Origin: a virus
Lineage: Duplodnaviria > Heunggongvirae > Uroviricota > Caudoviricetes
Strand: one strand, 5' to 3'
IMG/VR virus record: IMGVR_UViG_2703718837_000008
Span: 1 to 38,421 of that record
DNA length: 38,421 nucleotides
Notes under the pieces: generated by a model
What the model was told of the DNA's origin: nothing
Databases searched by the model: none
Seen by the model: only the letters and a program-made list of their open reading frames with translations
Program-made: the position numbers and the translations under genes
Part shown: in pieces, positions 5,251 to 35,500 of the stretch
Layout: each line of letters begins with the position of its first letter
Position numbering within the stretch: position 1 is the first letter of the stretch

Positions 5251-5308
5251 AAAAAGGGCGGCAGAGCAGTCGCGGAGTAAAACTGATACCGCCAAACGCC
5301 ACCAGAAA
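5251..5308 (-). ncRNA. dicF: DicF small RNA (ftsZ-targeting sRNA)
   Basis: Minus-strand sequence TTTCTGGTGGCGTTTGGCGGTATCAGTTTTACTCCGCGACTGCTCTGCCGCCCTTTTT matches the K-12 DicF sequence as I recall it (1-2 substitutions), ending in a T-run. Lies ~170 nt upstream of dicB, as in Qin. Ends are approximate. Confidence 0.75.
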
Positions 5309-5577
5309 ATTGATAACAGAGGGCGTTGCAGCGGGGTTGTCACTTAAGCGTATGGTCAACCTGACAACCCGGTGTCCTCAACGGGGAAGGAATAACCCCG
5401 CCATACTTACCGCCGCGCCATTTCGCGGAGTGCCACAACCGGAAGCGCACGGTCGACGAAAATTTAACGACAGGCTATCTATAAACCAGCTACCTCGCCG
5501 TACGCTTTCGCGTTGTGTGCCTGCTTTTAACCACGTCAGGCGAGGTGGTTCCTGTTATTCCCCAACAACAAGAAATT

Positions 5578-5585
5578 TGTATAAT
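5578..5585 (+). promoter_or_regulatory. Extended -10 promoter (TGtTATAAT) for the downstream + strand ORF
   Basis: TG at 5578-5579 followed by TATAAT at 5580-5585. Flanked by two 17-nt direct repeats TCCCCAACAAC(A/G)AGAA at 5559-5575 and 5593-5609. GAGAAGA RBS at 5604-5610 precedes a GTG start at 5620. Confidence 0.4.
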
Positions 5586-5619
5586 CCGGATATCCCCAAC
5601 AACGAGAAGAGTACTCAAC

Positions 5620-6075
5620 GTGATAGCAGAACTGTCAGCGGCTATGGCTGCGATAAAGGAGACAGCTGGTCTCGCTAAGGTTATTAATGACGCAAAAACG
5701 GATGCAGAAGTTAAAGCCGCAACTATTGAACTTCAGAACAAACTAATCACGCTTCAGGCGGAATGCTTCTCTCTTTGCGATGCGATCCGCTTTCGTGATG
5801 AAGAGATAATGCATCTCAAAGCAAAAATTGCAGAGACAGAAGATTTTCAGCGACAGGCGGAAGGTTACAAGCTTAACAAGCTTGATTCTGGAACCCTTGT
5901 ATATTCCAAGAAGCAATTTATAGGCGATACTGAGATAACTGTGCATCTTTGCCCACAATGTTTTGGAAAAAAGGCAATATCTGTACTTCAGCCAATGGAA
6001 ATAATGCGCTTTGATGCTCATTTTCGTACTTTTTGCCCCGCTTGCAATAATAAGTTCTGGATGAACTCAAGATAA
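5620..6075 (+). CDS. Hypothetical protein: N-terminal coiled-coil plus C-terminal C4 zinc ribbon
   Basis: ~152 aa from GTG 5620 (ATG at 5644 is an alternative). Heptad-like N-terminus (AAIKETAGLAKVINDAKTDAEVKAATIELQNKLITLQAE...). C-terminus has CPQC...(22 aa)...CPAC. Convergent to the dicB operon and sits in an insertion relative to the K-12 ydfC-dicF junction. Confidence 0.5.
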   Translation: MIAELSAAMAAIKETAGLAKVINDAKTDAEVKAATIELQNKLITLQAECFSLCDAIRFRDEEIMHLKAKIAETEDFQRQAEGYKLNKLDSGTLVYSKKQFIGDTEITVHLCPQCFGKKAISVLQPMEIMRFDAHFRTFCPACNNKFWMNSR

Positions 6076-6210
6076 TTAACCGTTTAAATAAGTTGGGACT
6101 ATCCAGATTTTTAAAGAACGTACCGGATGCTCACCCGTGTCCGGCGCACGCACTCCACCTCACCCGTGGAGAACTCCTTAATTACCAACCTTAGCTTCGT
6201 TGGTTAGCTA

Positions 6211-6926: not shown

Positions 6927-6967
6927 ATGATACCCATGGGTATTCAAAAAGTAAATACCCATGGGTA
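6927..6967 (-). promoter_or_regulatory. Predicted promoter of the ydfABC-dicF-dicB operon with two identical 12-bp palindromic operators
   Basis: Perfect palindrome TACCCATGGGTA at 6931-6942 and again at 6956-6967 (25 bp centre to centre). On the minus strand a TTTACT(-35)-17-TATCAT(-10) promoter (plus coordinates 6950-6955 and 6927-6932) overlaps them. Confidence 0.5.
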
Positions 6968-12550: not shown

Positions 12551-12704
12551 TTTTATATTGGCGAGGTGACGTGAGTTAAGTAGAATTGCTGCGGGTGCTT
12601 GAGGCTATCTGCCTCAGGCATGAACACCAAAGGCAGATAGAGAAAAGCCCCAGTTAACATTACGCGTCCTGCAAGACGCTTAACATTAATCTGAGGCTCA
12701 ATCT

Positions 12705-12917
12705 ATGAACGGCAAATCTAGGTTAGCCTCTTACGTGCCGAAAGGCAAGGAGAAGCAGGCTATGAAGCAGCAAAAGGCGATGTTAATCGCCCTGATCGTC
12801 ATCTGTTTAACCGTCATAGTGACGGCACTGGTAACGAGGAAAGACCTCTGCGAGGTACGAATCCGAACCGGCCAGACGGAGGTCGCTGTCTTCACAGCTT
12901 ACGAACCTGAGGAGTAA
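12705..12917 (+). CDS. mok-like overlapping reading frame (translational coupling frame for hok)
   Basis: 70-aa ORF in the same frame that contains the entire hok ORF, as in hok/mok loci. Confidence 0.4.
   Translation: MNGKSRLASYVPKGKEKQAMKQQKAMLIALIVICLTVIVTALVTRKDLCEVRIRTGQTEVAVFTAYEPEE
12762..12917 (+). CDS. hok: Hok/Gef family type I toxin
   Basis: 51-aa product MKQQKAMLIALIVICLTVIVTALVTRKDLCEVRIRTGQTEVAVFTAYEPEE matches the HokD/RelF sequence as I recall it. Followed by fbi-like 3' complementarity and a terminator. Confidence 0.85.
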   Translation: MKQQKAMLIALIVICLTVIVTALVTRKDLCEVRIRTGQTEVAVFTAYEPEE

Positions 12918-15677: not shown

Positions 15678-15753
15678 GGCCCTTTAGCTCAGTGGTGAGA
15701 GCGAGCGACTCATAATCGCCAGGTCGCTGGTTCAAATCCAGCAAGGGCCACCA
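15678..15753 (+). tRNA. tRNA with CAU anticodon, probably tRNA-Ile2 (lysidine type; Met not excluded)
   Basis: 76 nt, manually folded. Acceptor GGCCCTT/AAGGGCC, D-stem GCTC/GAGC, anticodon loop CTCATAA, T-loop TTCAAAT, 3' CCA encoded. Resembles E. coli ileX as I recall it. Confidence 0.8.
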
Positions 15754-15754
15754 A

Positions 15755-15831
15755 CCGCCACTAGCTCATCAGGAAAGAGCGTCAACCCTTTAAGTTGAGT
15801 GTGCGAGGTTCGAGTCCCCGGTGGCGGTCCA
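15755..15831 (+). tRNA. Atypical tRNA-like gene, anticodon UUU by loop position (Lys-like) with C33
   Basis: 77 nt, manually folded. Acceptor CCGCCAC/GTGGCGG, D-stem GCTC/GAGC, perfect anticodon stem TCAAC/GTTGA, loop CCTTTAA, T-loop TTCGAGT with one T-stem mismatch, CCA encoded. C at position 33 and C1 are unusual. Confidence 0.5.
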
Positions 15832-15833
15832 GT

Positions 15834-15909
<76 letters not shown>

Positions 15910-15912
15910 TAT

Positions 15913-15987
<75 letters not shown>

Positions 15988-26941: not shown

Positions 26942-29900
26942 ATGAGTGTGGCGACATTACGTGAACTGATTATTAAAATCTCGGCAAATTCCCGGTCATT
27001 CCAGTCAGAGATCTCCCGGGCTTCGCGTATGGGGCAGGATTACTACCGTACCATGCAGAACGGAGGCCGGCAGTCCGCTGCTGCATCCCGTGAAATGCGG
27101 CGTGCACTGGCAGAAGTGACGGATCAGATAAATACAGCTAAATCTTCGGCACTGAATATGGCGGGGGCATTTGCCGGAGCTTTTGCTACCGGTCATCTTA
27201 TTTCTCTCGCCGATGAGTGGAATTCAGTAAATGCCCGTCTGAAGCAGGCTTCACAGTCCAGTGATGATTTTCAGGTATCACAACGTGAATTAATGGCAAT
27301 CAGCCAGAGAACGGGAACGGCGTTTTCTGATAACGCCAGCCTTTTTGCCCGCTCTGCAGCTTCCATGCGGGAGTATGGCTACAGTTCTGAGGAGGTACTG
27401 AAAGTCACCGAGGCGATCTCCACGGGCCTGAAATTATCCGGTGCCAGTACAGCAGAAGCCAGTTCGGTGATCACGCAGTTCAGTCAGGCACTGGCGCAGG
27501 GAGTGCTGCGCGGTGAAGAATTTAACTCTGTGAATGAGAACGGCGATCGTGTTATTCGTGCGCTGGCTGCGGGAATGGGTGTTGCCCGTAAGGATCTGAA
27601 GGCCATGGCGGATAACGGAAAACTGACCGCCGATAAGGTTGTTCCTGCACTGATTAGTCAGCTTGGGGCGTTGCGTGATGAATATGCGGCAATGCCTGAT
27701 ACGGTTTCATCCTCTGCAACCAAAGTTGAAAACGCCTTTATGGCCTGGGTTGGTGGTGCGAACGAGGCAAGCGGAGTGACAAAGACGCTCTCTGGTGTGC
27801 TGAATGGTATTGCAGGCAATATTGACACTGTGGCAACCGCTGCCGGTGCTCTGGTTGCCGTCGGGGTAGCCCGATATTTTGGCAATATGGCGTCTTCTGC
27901 TGGATCTGCAACTGCCGGATTAATTACTGCAGCCAGAAACGAAGTGGCTCTTGCGGAAGCGCAACTTCGGGGGACACAGATAGCAACCGCCAGGGCGCGT
28001 GCGGCGGTTTATCGTGCGCAACAGGCGGTTGTTGCTGCTCGCGGTACCGAAAGGCAGGCAGCCGCAGAAGCGAAACTGGCTGCTGCCCAGGCATCACTTA
28101 CCCGTAATATTGCGGCCAGAACAGCAGCACAGACAACGCTGAATACTGTCACGTCAGCGGGGAGTCGTCTGTTAAGTGGAGCACTGGGACTGGTTGGGGG
28201 TGTGCCGGGGCTTGTCATGCTGGGGGCCGCGGCCTGGTACACGATGTATCAGAATCAGGAGCAGGCCAGAGAATCTGCACGCCAGTATGCCGCAACAATC
28301 GACGAAATTCGCCAGAAAACGTCGGCAATGTCGCTTCCTGAAGCGTCAGATAATGAGGAAAAGACGCGGCAGGCACTGGAGGAACAAAATCGCCTGATTG
28401 GTGAGCAGGAAGGAAAAATTCGCGGACTGAAAAATCAAATTGCTGATTATCAACGTTGGCTTGATGAAAGTTCGCAGAGTGGTTCGGGTGCTGAAATCAT
28501 CCTTAAAGGGCTTGCCGAAGCAACAAATCAACTGGCAGTTGAACAGTCCCGTCTCACACAAATGCAGGGCAAAGCGCAATCCATTCAGGATGTGCTTGCC
28601 GGGCTGGAGGAGCGGCGGGTTGCGTTGATCCGTCAACAGGCAGCGGAACAAAACAAAGCGTATCAGTCCCTGTTGATCATGAATGGGCAGCATACCGAGT
28701 TTAATCGCCTTCTCGGGCTTGGTAATGAGTTACTTCAGCAGCGTCAGGGGCTGGTGAATGTACCATTACGGCTGCCACAGGCAACCCTGGATGATAAACA
28801 GCAGAATGCGCTGAATAACAGCGAGCGCGAACTGGCTCTGTCCCGCCTGAAGGGGGAAGCCCGTGAGCGTGCCCGCCTGGGTTATGCTGCGGATGATCTC
28901 GGCTTTGTGGGAGAGGCATATCAGACAGCAAGACTGAATTATATAAATAACTCACTGGATGCATGGCGAAATAATCAGGCAAATAAACCCAAAGCGCATA
29001 AAAAGACCGAGGCGGAAAAAACAGAAGATATTTATAAACGGCTGATTAAACAGCAGAAAGAGCAGATAGCACTGGCAGGGCAGAATACTGAACTGGCTAA
29101 GATGAAATATCAGGTCAGTCAGGGCGAATTATCAACCCTGTCAGAAGCGCAGAAAAAAACGCTTTTGCAGAATGCAGCACTCATCGACCAGAAAAAGATT
29201 CGTGAGCAGCTTGCTGCGTATGAGAGCAGTCTGGCGGACAGTAATGCCAGTGCCCGGGCATCTGACGACGCGCAGTTGCTGGGATATGGTGAAGGCTCAC
29301 GGATGCGTGAACGACTCCAGGAAATGTGGAGTATCCGGCAGACGTTTGAGCAGAAAAATAACGAGCTGCTGAGACAGTATCAGGCCGGAGAAATTGAAGA
29401 AGCCCTGTGGAAACAGGAGAAAGAACTGAATAAAAAATATCTGGAAGAGCGTCTCAGCGATCAGCAGGATTATTATGCAAAGGCTGATGCTTTACGCAGT
29501 AACTGGAATGCCGGACTCCAGGAGGGGCTGACGAACTGGGCAGACAGTGCCACTGATTATGCTTCGCAGGCGGCAGATGCTGTCGTTTCCACGATGGACG
29601 GGCTGGTATCAAATATTTCCGATGCACTGGCCGGGAATGTTGTTGACTGGAGGAACTGGGGGAGTTCAGTTCTCCAGGAAGTTTCAAAAATTCTGATGAA
29701 TGCGGCCATTGTTAACGGACTGAAATCACTCTCCGGCGCCGGAGGGTGGCTTGGTACGGTAGGCGGATGGATTTCGGGGGCAGTAGCAAACGCAAAAGGT
29801 GGTGTTTACACATCGGCAAATCTGAGTGCTTACAGTAACACTATTGTGGATACGCCGACGTATTTTGCTTTTGCGAAAGGTGCCGGACTGATGGGCGAGG

Positions 29901-32533: not shown

Positions 32534-35500
32534 ATGGGTAAAGGCAGCAGTAAGGGGCATACCCCGCGCGAAGCGAAGGACAACCTGAAATCCACGCAGT
32601 TACTGAGTGTGATCGATGCCATCAGTGAAGGGCCGGTTGAAGGTCCGGTGGATGGCTTAAAAAGCGTGCTGCTGAACAGTACGCCGGTGCTGGACAGTGA
32701 GGGGAATACCAATATCTCCGGTGTCACGGTGGTGTTCCGGGCAGGTGAGCAGGAGCAGACACCGCCGGAGGGCTTTGAATCCTCCGGTTCCGAGACGGTG
32801 CTGGGTACGGAAGTGAAATACGACACGCCGATCACCCGCACCATCACGTCGGCAAACATCGACCGACTGCGCTTTACCTTCGGCGTGCAGGCACTGGTGG
32901 AAACCACCTCAAAGGGGGACCGGAATCCGTCGGAAGTTCGCCTGCTGGTTCAGATACAGCGTAATGGTGGCTGGGTGACGGAAAAAGACATCACCATTAA
33001 GGGCAAAACCACCTCGCAGTATCTGGCCTCGGTGGTGGTGGATAACCTGCCGCCGCGCCCGTTTAATATCCGGATGCGCAGGATGACGCCGGACAGCACC
33101 ACAGACCAGCTGCAGAACAAAACGCTCTGGTCGTCATACACCGAAATCATCGATGTGAAACAGTGCTACCCGAACACGGCACTGGTCGGCGTGCAGGTGG
33201 ACTCGGAGCAGTTCGGCAGCCAGCAGGTGAGCCGTAATTATCATCTTCGCGGGCGCATTCTGCAGGTGCCGTCGAACTATAACCCGCAGACGCGGCAATA
33301 CAGCGGTATCTGGGACGGAACGTTTAAACCGGCATACAGCAACAACATGGCCTGGTGTCTGTGGGATATGCTGACCCATCCGCGCTACGGCATGGGGAAA
33401 CGTCTTGGTGCGGCGGATGTGGATAAATGGGCGCTGTATGTCATCGGCCAGAATTGCGACCAGTCGGTGCCGGACGGCTTTGGCGGCACGGAGCCGCGCA
33501 TCACCTGTAATGCGTACCTGACCACACAGCGCAAGGCGTGGGATGTGCTCAGTGATTTCTGCTCGGCGATGCGCTGTATGCCGGTATGGAACGGGCAGAC
33601 GCTGACGTTCGTGCAGGACCGACAGTCGGATAAGGTGTGGACCTATAACCGCAGTAATGTGGTGATGCCGGATGATGGCGCGCCGTTCCGCTACAGCTTC
33701 AGCGCCCTGAAGGACCGCCATAATGCCGTTGAGGTGACCTGGATTGACCCGAACAACGGCTGGGAGACGGCGACAGAGCTTGTTGAAGATACGCAGGCCA
33801 TTGCCCGTTACGGTCGTAACGTCACGAAGATGGATGCCTTTGGTTGTACCAGTCGGGGGCAGGCACACCGAGCCGGGCTGTGGTTGATTAAAACGGAGCT
33901 GCTGGAAACGCAGACCGTGGATTTCAGTGTGGGCGCAGAAGGGCTTCGCCATGTGCCGGGCGATGTCATTGAAATCTGTGATGATGACTATGCCGGTATC
34001 AGCACCGGTGGTCGCGTGCTGGCGGTGAACAGCCAGACCCGGACGCTGACGCTCGACCGTGAAATCACGCTGCCATCCTCCGGTACCACGCTGATAAGCC
34101 TGGTTGACGGAAGTGGTAATCCGGTCAGCGTGGAGGTTCAGTCCGTCACCGACGGACTTAAGGTGAAAGTGAACCGGGTTCCTGACGGCGTTGCAGAATA
34201 CAGTGTGTGGGGGCTGAAGTTGCCGACGCTGCGTCAGCGCCTGTTCCGCTGCGTGAGTATCCGTGAGAACGATGACGGCACGTATGCCATCACTGCCGTG
34301 CAGCATGTACCAGAAAAAGAGGCCATCGTGGATAACGGGGCGCACTTTGACGGCGACCAGAGCGGCACGGTGAATGGTGTCACGCCGCCAGCGGTGCAGC
34401 ACCTGACCGCCGAAGTCACCGCAGACAGCGGGGAATATCAGGTGCTGGCGCGCTGGGACACGCCGAAGGTGGTGAAGGGCGTGAGCTTCCTGCTCCGTCT
34501 GACCGTAACAGCGGATGACGGCAGTGAGCGGCTGGTCAGCACGGCCCGGACGACGGAAACCACATACCGCTTCAGGCAACTGGCGCTGGGAAACTACAGG
34601 CTGACAGTCCGGGCGGCAAATGCCTGGGGGCAGCAGGGCGATCCGGCATCGGTATCGTTCCGGATTGCCGCACCGGCAGCACCGTCGCGGATTGAGCTGA
34701 CACCGGGCTATTTTCAGATAACCGCCACGCCGCATCTTGCGGTTTATGATCCGACGGTACAGTTTGAGTTCTGGTTCTCGGAAAAGCGGATTACCGATAT
34801 CAGGCAGGTTGAAACCAGCGCGCGTTATCTTGGCACGGGGATGTACTGGATAGCCGCCAGTATCAATATCAAACCGGGCCATGATTATTACTTTTATATC
34901 CGCAGTGTGAACACCGTTGGCAAATCGACATTCGTGGAGGCTGTCGGTCAGGCGAGCGATGATGCGGAAGGTTACCTGGATTTTTTCAAAGGCCAGATAA
35001 CCGAATCCCATCTCGGCAAGGAGCTGCTGGAAAAAGTCGAGCTGACGGAGGATAACGCCAGCAAACTGGAGGAGTTTTCGAAAGAGTGGCAGGACGCTAA
35101 CGATAAGTGGAATGCCATGTGGGGCGTCAAAATTGAGCAGACCAAAGACGGCAAACATTATGTCGCGGGTATTGGCCTCAGCATGGAGGACACGGAAGAA
35201 GGCAAGCTGAGCCAGTTTCTGGTTGCCGCTAACCGTATCGCGTTTATTGACCCGGCAAACGGGAATGAAACGCCGATGTTTGTGGCGCAGGGCAATCAGA
35301 TATTTATGAACGACGTGTTCCTGAAGCGCCTGACGGCCCCGACCATTACCAGTGGTGGAAATCCACCGGCATTTACCCTGACATCAGACGGAAAGCTGAC
35401 CGCTAAAAATGCAGATATCAGTGGCAGTGTGAATGCGAACTCCGGGACGCTCAACAACGTTACGATAAATGAGAACTGTCAGATTAAAGGGAAACTGTCA

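Follow-up and report, generated by a model that had tools for sequence, protein, structure and literature searches.

Direct repeats around a promoter-type -10 hexamer in an Escherichia coli Qin-type prophage as the probable core of a sieB/sas-type regulatory module

The closest described relatives of the region treated here are the sieB leaders of the phages P22 and lambda. In P22, the antisense RNA sas, by pairing with the sieB mRNA, acts as a switch between the translation of SieB and that of Esc (PMC12197685, PMC7067206), and a 2026 study gives the sequenced sas RNA (PMC13397905 Table 2). In lambda, sieB (34482-35036) points rightward, against the PL operon, and is flanked by ral and N; for P22, the curated record BK000583 places the sieB promoter at 29690-29720 and the start of the sieB RNA at 29727. 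As relayed by reviews, sas was reportedly described in a single phage by Ranade and Poteete in 1993 (J Bacteriol 175:4712; Genes Dev 7:1498). We analysed the IMG/VR record IMGVR_UViG_2703718837_000008 over its full length of 38,421 nt (hereafter the window), a Qin/DicB-type lambdoid prophage of E. coli. Upstream of a gene for a zinc-ribbon protein it contains two 16-nt direct repeats on either side of a TATAAT hexamer (Table 1). With moderate confidence, we read these repeats as the conserved core of a sieB-type promoter combined with a sas-type antisense-RNA module, which here drives the zinc-ribbon gene and not sieB.

The two copies, TCCCCAACAACAAGAA and TCCCCAACAACGAGAA, are identical at 15 of 16 positions and start 34 nt apart. 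A sequence-only reading of the window had described them as 17-nt repeats (to 5575 and 5609) with 16 identities; the repeats are present, but 15 of these 17 positions are identical, base 17 being A versus G. With up to two mismatches allowed, the motif occurs in the 38.4-kb window at just these two places (chance expectation 0.03; none of 100 shuffles reached two), and neither the rest of the window nor the sequence flanking related loci contained further copies suggestive of a regulon. A search across the homologous loci recovered both copies in all 44 distinct aligned loci and in 83 distinct related modules; hence, the repeats are not a local accident. The hexamer between them is a perfect TATAAT, although a consensus promoter scan of the window did not call it. 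An extended -10 carries TG at -15/-14, one base upstream of the hexamer (TGnTATAAT). Such a motif had been proposed at 5578-5585, a misreading of the sequence: positions 5577-5585 read TTGTATAAT, with T and T at -15/-14 and G at -13, so that the TTG preceding the hexamer leaves a plain -10. The remainder of the proposed layout holds, i.e. repeats flanking a promoter-type -10 and, by alignment to P22, a second copy at the transcript start.

Window positions 5516-5609 share 72% identity with the region upstream of P22 sieB (alignment score 38 versus -7.9 +/- 4.3 for shuffles). Over about 100 nt, the leader is 72% identical to P22 and 69% to lambda, with alignment scores more than 10 standard deviations above shuffles. 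A BLAST search with the leader consensus matched lambda 34395-34464, directly upstream of sieB, as well as records annotated as SieB in other phages. The annotated P22 promoter aligns to window positions 5558-5587, the P22 -10 TAAACT onto 5581-5586, and the P22 start, an A immediately 5' of CCCCTACAG, corresponds to window position 5592-5593. By this alignment, repeat 1 overlaps the -35 side of the promoter, and the mRNA would enter repeat 2 at about its second nucleotide (+2). A TAnnnT hexamer (12 different hexamers) precedes repeat 2 by 4-9 nt in 81 of the 83 distinct modules versus 19 of 83 after shuffling. Neither upstream of module 1, the structured element in front of repeat 1, nor within it was a conserved TAnnnT or -35 found for a promoter that would place both repeats in the sense RNA.

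By its sequence, the region is a further member of the P22/lambda PsieB-sas module, with a new cargo and a new repeat allele. Similar to P22 and lambda, it consists of the structured element, repeat 1 at -35, a TAnnnT -10, repeat 2 at +1 and a weak GAGTA-type Shine-Dalgarno (SD) sequence, it precedes a rightward gene inside a leftward early operon, and its antisense strand carries the same hairpin and pseudoknot-like element. The sieB promoters of lambda (NC_001416 34395-34500) and P22 (BK000583 29650-29760) have a two-copy repeat, ACCCCTACAG twice, 34 nt apart. In contrast to these phages, the window has TCCCCAACAAC as its repeat, a DicA/DicB-type operon with no N gene adjoining the cassette, a 3' module of its own (terminator, inverted repeat and boxA-like sequence) and an unrelated zinc-ribbon protein as cargo. 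The zinc-ribbon protein showed no similarity to P22 SieB (BLASTP E = 0.54), and the cargo is not a sieB gene with an in-frame internal esc start. Because the cargo is unrelated to SieB, membership is claimed for the regulatory module and not for the sieB/esc gene system.

The sas sequence (PMC13397905) maps to the minus strand of BK000583 at 29636-29762. This stable RNA, which spans both repeats, starts with the complements of the sieB start codon and SD sequence, followed by those of repeat 2 (CUGUAGGGGU) and of the -10 segment, by a hairpin that includes the repeat-1 complement (CUCGCUGUA-GGGG-UACACGAG) and by module 1 at the 3' end, and the sequenced RNA ends just beyond module 1. The minus strand of the window has an identical layout, and by analogy module 1 is predicted to form the 3'-terminal structure of a sas-like antisense RNA. 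Module 1 occurs once in the window and is identical to P22 at 28 and to lambda at 27 of 31 positions. Its helix GCCTG/CAGGC is 98.5% paired, with GC, UA and GU replacements and the variants GCCGGG/CCCGGC and GCCUU/AAGGC; the helix CCAC/GTGG is 90.5% paired, with one CCGC/GCGG double change and with CACG/CGUG and CGCG/CGCG in a second family. Together, the two helices make up a candidate H-type pseudoknot.

The hairpin H1 takes its 5' arm and its GGGG loop from repeat 1. The minimum free energy fold of the window minus strand has an 11-bp stem with this loop, and the copies from P22, lambda and O157 fold alike. H1 shows compensatory changes at four pairs and is kept in all allele types with -7 to -12 kcal/mol. 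On the minus strand, 405 of 408 cells are paired (97 of them as G.U) versus 311 of 408 on the plus strand; therefore, the minus strand is the folding strand. In a minus-strand alignment of 53 sequences, H1 and both helices of module 1 were paired in 90.4% of cells versus 33-47% in slid controls, and seven pairs had changed on both sides. The covariation score of this alignment was 0.172 versus 0.110 and was reached by none of 500 shuffles, although the sequences are related and the shuffle control thus overstates the significance. Clearly different lineages (lambda/P22, the L114 group, L081/L162 and L165) contributed the double changes, and RNAalifold recovered H1 and the helix GCCTG/CAGGC unaided.

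Modules with other repeat alleles were recovered by scanning viral contigs for module 1. At least five alleles exist: TCCCCAACAAC in the window, TCCCCAACGAC, ACCCCTACAG in lambda, P22, Klebsiella and Hafnia, TTCCACAGTCAA (allele C), CCCCAATGCAA and CCCCCACAA. Every allele has two matching copies 33-34 nt apart within an unchanged architecture and keeps H1 by compensating changes in the opposite arm. Predicted duplexes between the mRNA 5' end and H1 range from -19 to -27.5 kcal/mol for cognate and from -4 to -19 kcal/mol for cross-allele pairs, the cognate duplex being the stronger one in almost all comparisons; the closely related alleles A and A' are not discriminated by these energies. A loose genome-wide search for 8-mer repeats at a spacing of 32-36 nt returned mostly noise.

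The minus-strand genes of the window include a repressor-like gene, ydfA, ydfB, ydfC, the small RNA (sRNA) DicF, dicB, ydfD and a large exonuclease gene. The cassette occupies about 5519-6119, with ydfC on one side and dicF on the other, and lies within this leftward early operon in antisense orientation; in comparison with K-12 Qin and other prophages about 5529-6119 represents an insertion between dicF and ydfC. The orientation against the leftward early operon was found in the window, lambda, P22 and five other annotated contexts; annotated records were relied on here, as a test of neighbour orientation by the length of open reading frames (ORFs) is unreliable for tiny genes. The cargo protein is annotated as hypothetical everywhere, belongs to phrog_1244 of unknown function and has no Pfam or PADLOC family. 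Relatives down to about 50% amino acid identity were collected from 82 loci in E. coli, Kluyvera, Edwardsiella, Citrobacter, Kosakonia, Serratia and viral contigs, and 44 distinct upstream sequences were aligned. The approximately 100 nt upstream are far better conserved than the protein, with TTCCCCAAC in repeat 1, TAATC, and CCCCA in repeat 2 invariant in the 44 sequences. The region very probably controls the zinc-ribbon ORF. At least seven further ORF families, unrelated to one another and each with its own SD sequence, likewise follow this leader, which ends just past repeat 2. The repeats thus belong to a regulatory module that is portable and are not a feature of the gene.

Of 5426 complete E. 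coli genomes, 1503 contain the leader consensus at a coverage of at least 80%, without annotation in any of them. The module is also present in phages or prophages of Kluyvera, Citrobacter, Edwardsiella, Kosakonia, Serratia, Klebsiella, Hafnia and Salmonella. One leader copy lies in prophage Sp6 of O157:H7 Sakai upstream of ECs_1504, a gene without mention in the literature searched and without an Hfq-CRAC sRNA at its coordinates. A full-text literature search for the repeat sequence yielded only unrelated primers. Rfam holds no model for sas, and none of its families matched the element at gathering or permissive thresholds.

Table 1 Features of the cassette in the window (positions in the whole stretch; SD, Shine-Dalgarno sequence; UTR, untranslated region)
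Feature	Position	Strand	Remarks
Predicted sas-like antisense RNA	5517-5624	-	Anti-start-codon, anti-SD, repeat-2 complement, anti -10, H1, pseudoknot; mapped from P22 sas by alignment
Module 1	5519-5548	-	GCCTG 5519-5523/CAGGC 5537-5541 interleaved with CCAC 5531-5534/GTGG 5545-5548; H-type pseudoknot topology
Hairpin H1	5549-5574	-	5'-UUCUUGUUGUU-GGGG-AAUAACAGGAA-3'; 5' arm and GGGG loop from repeat 1
-35-like hexamer TTCCCC	5558-5563	+	3/6 to TTGACA, poor; overlaps repeat 1; 16-nt spacer to TATAAT; aligns with 5' end of P22 sieB promoter feature
Direct repeat 1, TCCCCAACAACAAGAA	5559-5574	+	Core TTCCCCAAC invariant in 44 loci
-10 hexamer TATAAT	5580-5585	+	Not extended; one base off register of P22 -10 TAAACT
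Predicted transcription start (A)	5592	+	7 nt past -10, plus alignment to P22 start 29727; 28-nt 5' UTR beginning AUCCCCAACAAC
Direct repeat 2, TCCCCAACAACGAGAA	5593-5608	+	First nucleotides of predicted mRNA; runs into weak SD GAGAAGAG, about 5604-5611
Cargo gene	5620-6075	+	151 amino acids, coiled coil and C-terminal zinc ribbon, GTG start; RefSeq WP_000559912.1; phrog_1244
Terminator-like long imperfect hairpin	6056-6112	+	Arms 6056-6079/6084-6107, then TTTTT; cassette end
Inverted copy GTTGGGACTATCCAGATT of leader 5583-5600	6092-6109	.	15/18; 17/18 on minus strand with G.U
boxA-like CGUUCUUUAAAAA	6108-6120	-	One mismatch to YGCTCTTTAA, 10-nt core; early-left-operon strand

Antisense-RNA control is the most likely mechanism, and we infer RNA-RNA recognition in preference to a repressor site. 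In the lysogen, the zinc-ribbon gene would be transcribed from a weak sigma-70 promoter (TTCCCC, 16 nt, TATAAT). Leftward early transcription through the cassette, upon induction or infection by a related phage, would lead to the accumulation of a sas-like RNA of about 105-130 nt, stabilised by H1 and the 3' pseudoknot. This RNA would pair with the mRNA from +1 through the SD sequence and the GTG, and translation would be shut off or re-routed. The most speculative step concerns repeat 1. As it equals repeat 2, the arm and loop of H1 may form a second site for the mRNA 5' end, already folded and complementary to it, at which pairing would nucleate ('kissing' site). This would explain the joint change of the two copies in every variant, and we regard it as the simplest reading. 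The RNA-binding site that the sequence-only reading had named as an alternative to a repressor came closer to this picture, with the qualification that the minus-strand covariation and P22 sas indicate an antisense RNA, and not a protein, as the likely partner.

The antisense stem-loops of IS10 RNA-OUT/RNA-IN and CopA/CopT have a G/C-rich loop complementary to the 5' end or the 5' hairpin loop of the target. Here, too, the pairing would then cover the ribosome-binding site and loop variants would define specificity classes. In contrast to both systems, with which there is no sequence homology, the H1 loop of the window lies outside the true cis-overlap and matches its target only via the direct repeat, and the antisense RNA is probably a processed piece of the long operon transcript instead of the product of its own promoter. 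For sas itself, we presume an origin from the PL transcript.

Several observations weigh against antisense control in the form proposed. An antisense RNA made in cis matches its target by construction, and repeat 1 is not needed for the pairing; since complementarity to repeat 2 is automatic, the need for repeat 1 to match is the unexplained part. The evidence for a nucleation role of repeat 1 consists of the co-variation and the duplex energies, both of which restate the likeness of the repeats. Moreover, the co-variation is not strict, as the copies in L044, L165 and ev207 differ at one position, and the covariation test is affected by the relatedness mentioned above. The folding energy of the whole molecule is no better than that of shuffles (z = +0.14 for the window, -1.8 for P22), and inspection by eye revealed no convincing minus-strand promoter. 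The start site, the antisense RNA and the RNA ends have all been transferred from P22 to the window prophage by analogy. Finally, the cargo is not sieB/esc, and a translation switch between two in-frame starts may be inapplicable here.

The main alternative is an old tandem duplication under independent constraints, the copies being alike by descent or occasional gene conversion and never interacting. Repeat 1 would then be kept as the -35 region and as the arm and loop of a hairpin merely stabilising the antisense RNA, and repeat 2 as the mRNA 5' end, e.g. as a CA-rich, unstructured enhancer of translation or as an (ARN)n site for Hfq. Remnants of a duplication of about 33 nt are indeed visible past each repeat (P22 GAGAAATCGGATAAAC versus GAGAATCGCCGATGAAC), the copies are not always identical, and the stretch AAC AAC GAG AAG AGU past CCCC is an ARN-rich tract of the Hfq-distal-face kind near the SD sequence (PMC4104026). 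However, the at least five alleles differ at several core positions with both copies changed alike, whereas descent would let the copies erode independently; repeats of 9-14 nt are too short for efficient gene conversion; and the shared part of allele C (TTCCACAGTCAA) is the hairpin loop and not the CA-rich tract. On balance we consider this explanation unlikely. Less probable still is a long-range pairing in the early-left transcript, in which the repeat-2 complement and the anti -10 segment would pair with the inverted copy downstream of the cargo gene. The resulting stem of about 18 bp next to boxA would loop out the antisense cargo RNA and perhaps provide an RNase III site setting the antisense 5' end. 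An inverted copy is present in 65 of 92 related cassettes, in most of them 0-35 nt past the stop codon; L067 has a compensatory pair of changes in the inverted copy and the leader arm; a hand tally of mismatches gave more G.U-compatible pairs on the minus than on the plus strand; and in related cassettes an exact rrn-type boxA lies immediately upstream on the operon strand. The best-conserved part of the inverted copy, GGATATCCAGATT, nevertheless pairs with the -10/discriminator and not with the CCCCAAC core, and the 3' module is absent from lambda, P22 and several other cargo types, all of which have the direct repeats. Because the repeats are kept where the 3' module is absent, this pairing cannot be their primary reason.

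A repressor acting on the repeats was the first suggestion of the sequence-only reading. The C repressors of P2 and W-phi bind direct repeats flanking a promoter, about 22 bp apart in P2 and about 34 bp apart in W-phi. A repressor or activator bound at -35 and +1, three helical turns apart, would likewise occlude or recruit RNA polymerase. The geometry fits, as the copies have centres 33-34 bp apart and, similar to the operators of the P2 family, flank the -10 at whole-helical-turn spacing; the core is invariant within an allele, and the poor -35 would suit an activator. Unlike the P2-family operators, which are read by an immunity repressor encoded next to them, the cassettes with their at least seven unrelated cargo families share no linked regulator gene, and the cargoes have no recognisable DNA-binding domains. 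The immunity regions flanking the modules differ as well (DicA-like, RacR-like, CI/LexA-like, XRE). Alleles including lambda ACCCCTACAG and window TCCCCAACAAC coexist in E. coli, and one host protein cannot read all of them. Lastly, the sequence changes around repeat 1 obey the base-pairing rules of RNA, G.U pairs being tolerated on just one of the strands. A protein operator is very unlikely, because no protein travels with the module and different alleles share host species; the repressor thus finds no support, given unrelated cargoes and at least five alleles with matching copies.

Other candidates for the repeat region were rejected. AgvB-type anti-sRNAs lie 3' of PR' in a late-gene moron site, measure 51-60 nt and carry a CACAACA seed. 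The module belongs to the early-left region and not to a late moron site, and it reads CAACAAC, not the CACAACA seed, which speaks against an AgvB-like GcvB mimic; AgvB and AsxR lie downstream of PR' (PMC4104026). A CsrA site would fit AAGGAUUC, which most homologues have between the repeats, but the window and L081 lack the GGA. Sigma-E-like AAC..TCTGA, sigma-32, sigma-54, FliA, IscR, IHF, LexA and RcsB sites, as well as a DnaA box in module 1, were judged by eye against consensus sequences, and none held across the variants. Terminal repeats of a transposon were dismissed, as the inverted copies do not lie at the cassette boundaries.

At their 3' end, related cassettes have a canonical GCGTCC..GGGCGC-TTTTTT terminator. 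In most cassettes of this type the 3' module consists of an inverted copy of the -10-to-repeat-2 segment, GTTAAAGAGC and the canonical intrinsic terminator, and on the operon strand it appears as a hairpin followed by GCUCUUUAACAA, an exact rrn-type boxA. The exact 9-nt core GCUCUUUAA is present in 62 of 92 related cassettes and the exact GCUCUUUAACAA in 51 of 92, with a chance expectation of 0.006. Antitermination by rrn-type boxA and Nus factors operates in rRNA operons and CRISPR arrays. The cassettes resemble these in that the exact GCUCUUUAACAA stands at the entry to a long untranslated stretch of the operon transcript. Different from them, it stands at the far end of the cassette and not at the repeats, and CGUUCUUUAAAAA of the window has a C-to-U change in the core. 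The sieB regions of lambda and P22 are without this 3' module, and both have an N-type antiterminator gene adjoining sieB. The arrangement suggests a candidate device that would let an N-less operon transcribe through an untranslated insert, and it may serve against Rho in reading through the antisense insert.

The slot in the early-left operon harbours further cargoes. In L090, L094, L102, L114, L091, L159 and L211, these are at least seven unrelated small proteins without a Pfam family, among them a protein with two transmembrane segments and a weak PADLOC match to 'effector' and a 73-amino-acid zinc-ribbon protein matching the candidate PDC-M14A. The slot cargoes are probable candidates for exclusion or defence genes in the sieB slot. 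A second architecture, found in L002 2192-2262 (Sakai Sp12), L220 (mEp460) and L218 (phiES15), has only module 1 in common with the cassettes. There, module 1 abuts an extended -10, TGGTATCCT or TGGTATACT, the CCCC repeats are absent, and the 5' UTR contains a hairpin hiding the SD sequence of a small zinc-ribbon or other ORF.

Further features were noted in the surroundings of the cassette and elsewhere in the window. On the operon strand, about 210 nt separate the module from the DicF sRNA gene downstream of it (5256-5307, minus strand; Rfam RF00039, 73.5 bits). The 110-nt spacer between dicF and dicB is flanked by a perfect 18-nt inverted repeat (5100-5117/5228-5245) that recurs in Sakai Sp12 and in an Stx2a phage; in the operon RNA, its arms would pair into a long-range stem. 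An exact 10-nt direct repeat, CTCACCCGTG, at 6130-6139 and 6159-6168 (29 nt apart) surrounds a CCGGA/TCCGG hairpin and lies in the flank common to K-12 Qin. Between the repressor-like gene and the first early-left gene, a hairpin with a 16-bp stem and a T-rich tail (6931-6967, minus strand) overlaps a promoter-like TTTACT-17-TATCAT; it is probably the end of the repressor transcript beside the early-left promoter. A sok-type antitoxin RNA (Rfam, 111.7 bits) is located at 12593-12767 and a cluster of four tRNA genes at 15678-15984, both on the plus strand.

Beyond the window, we tentatively propose that the sieB/sas module might be a general, self-contained 'plug' by which foreign genes are wired, in antisense orientation, into the early-left operon of a lambdoid prophage, a possibility we hold with less confidence than the assignment of the repeats. 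The plug would supply a promoter for expression in the lysogen and an antisense RNA silencing the gene once the operon fires, and many copies would add their own terminator and boxA for read-through of the insert by the operon. The direct repeat would be the specificity determinant, in that the mRNA 5' end must match the arm and loop of the antisense hairpin. At least five non-cross-reacting alleles, like plasmid incompatibility groups, would allow several cassettes to coexist in one cell. For the window alone the gain is modest, as an unexplained repeat becomes part of a known type of regulatory region. With regard to the family, sas has been known from one phage since 1993, lacks an Rfam model and is unannotated in genomes, and its module appears here as a portable unit. 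Recognition of the module provides a marker for finding cargo, predicts that such cargo is on in the lysogen and off after induction, and makes the module a tractable case of co-evolving RNA recognition elements.

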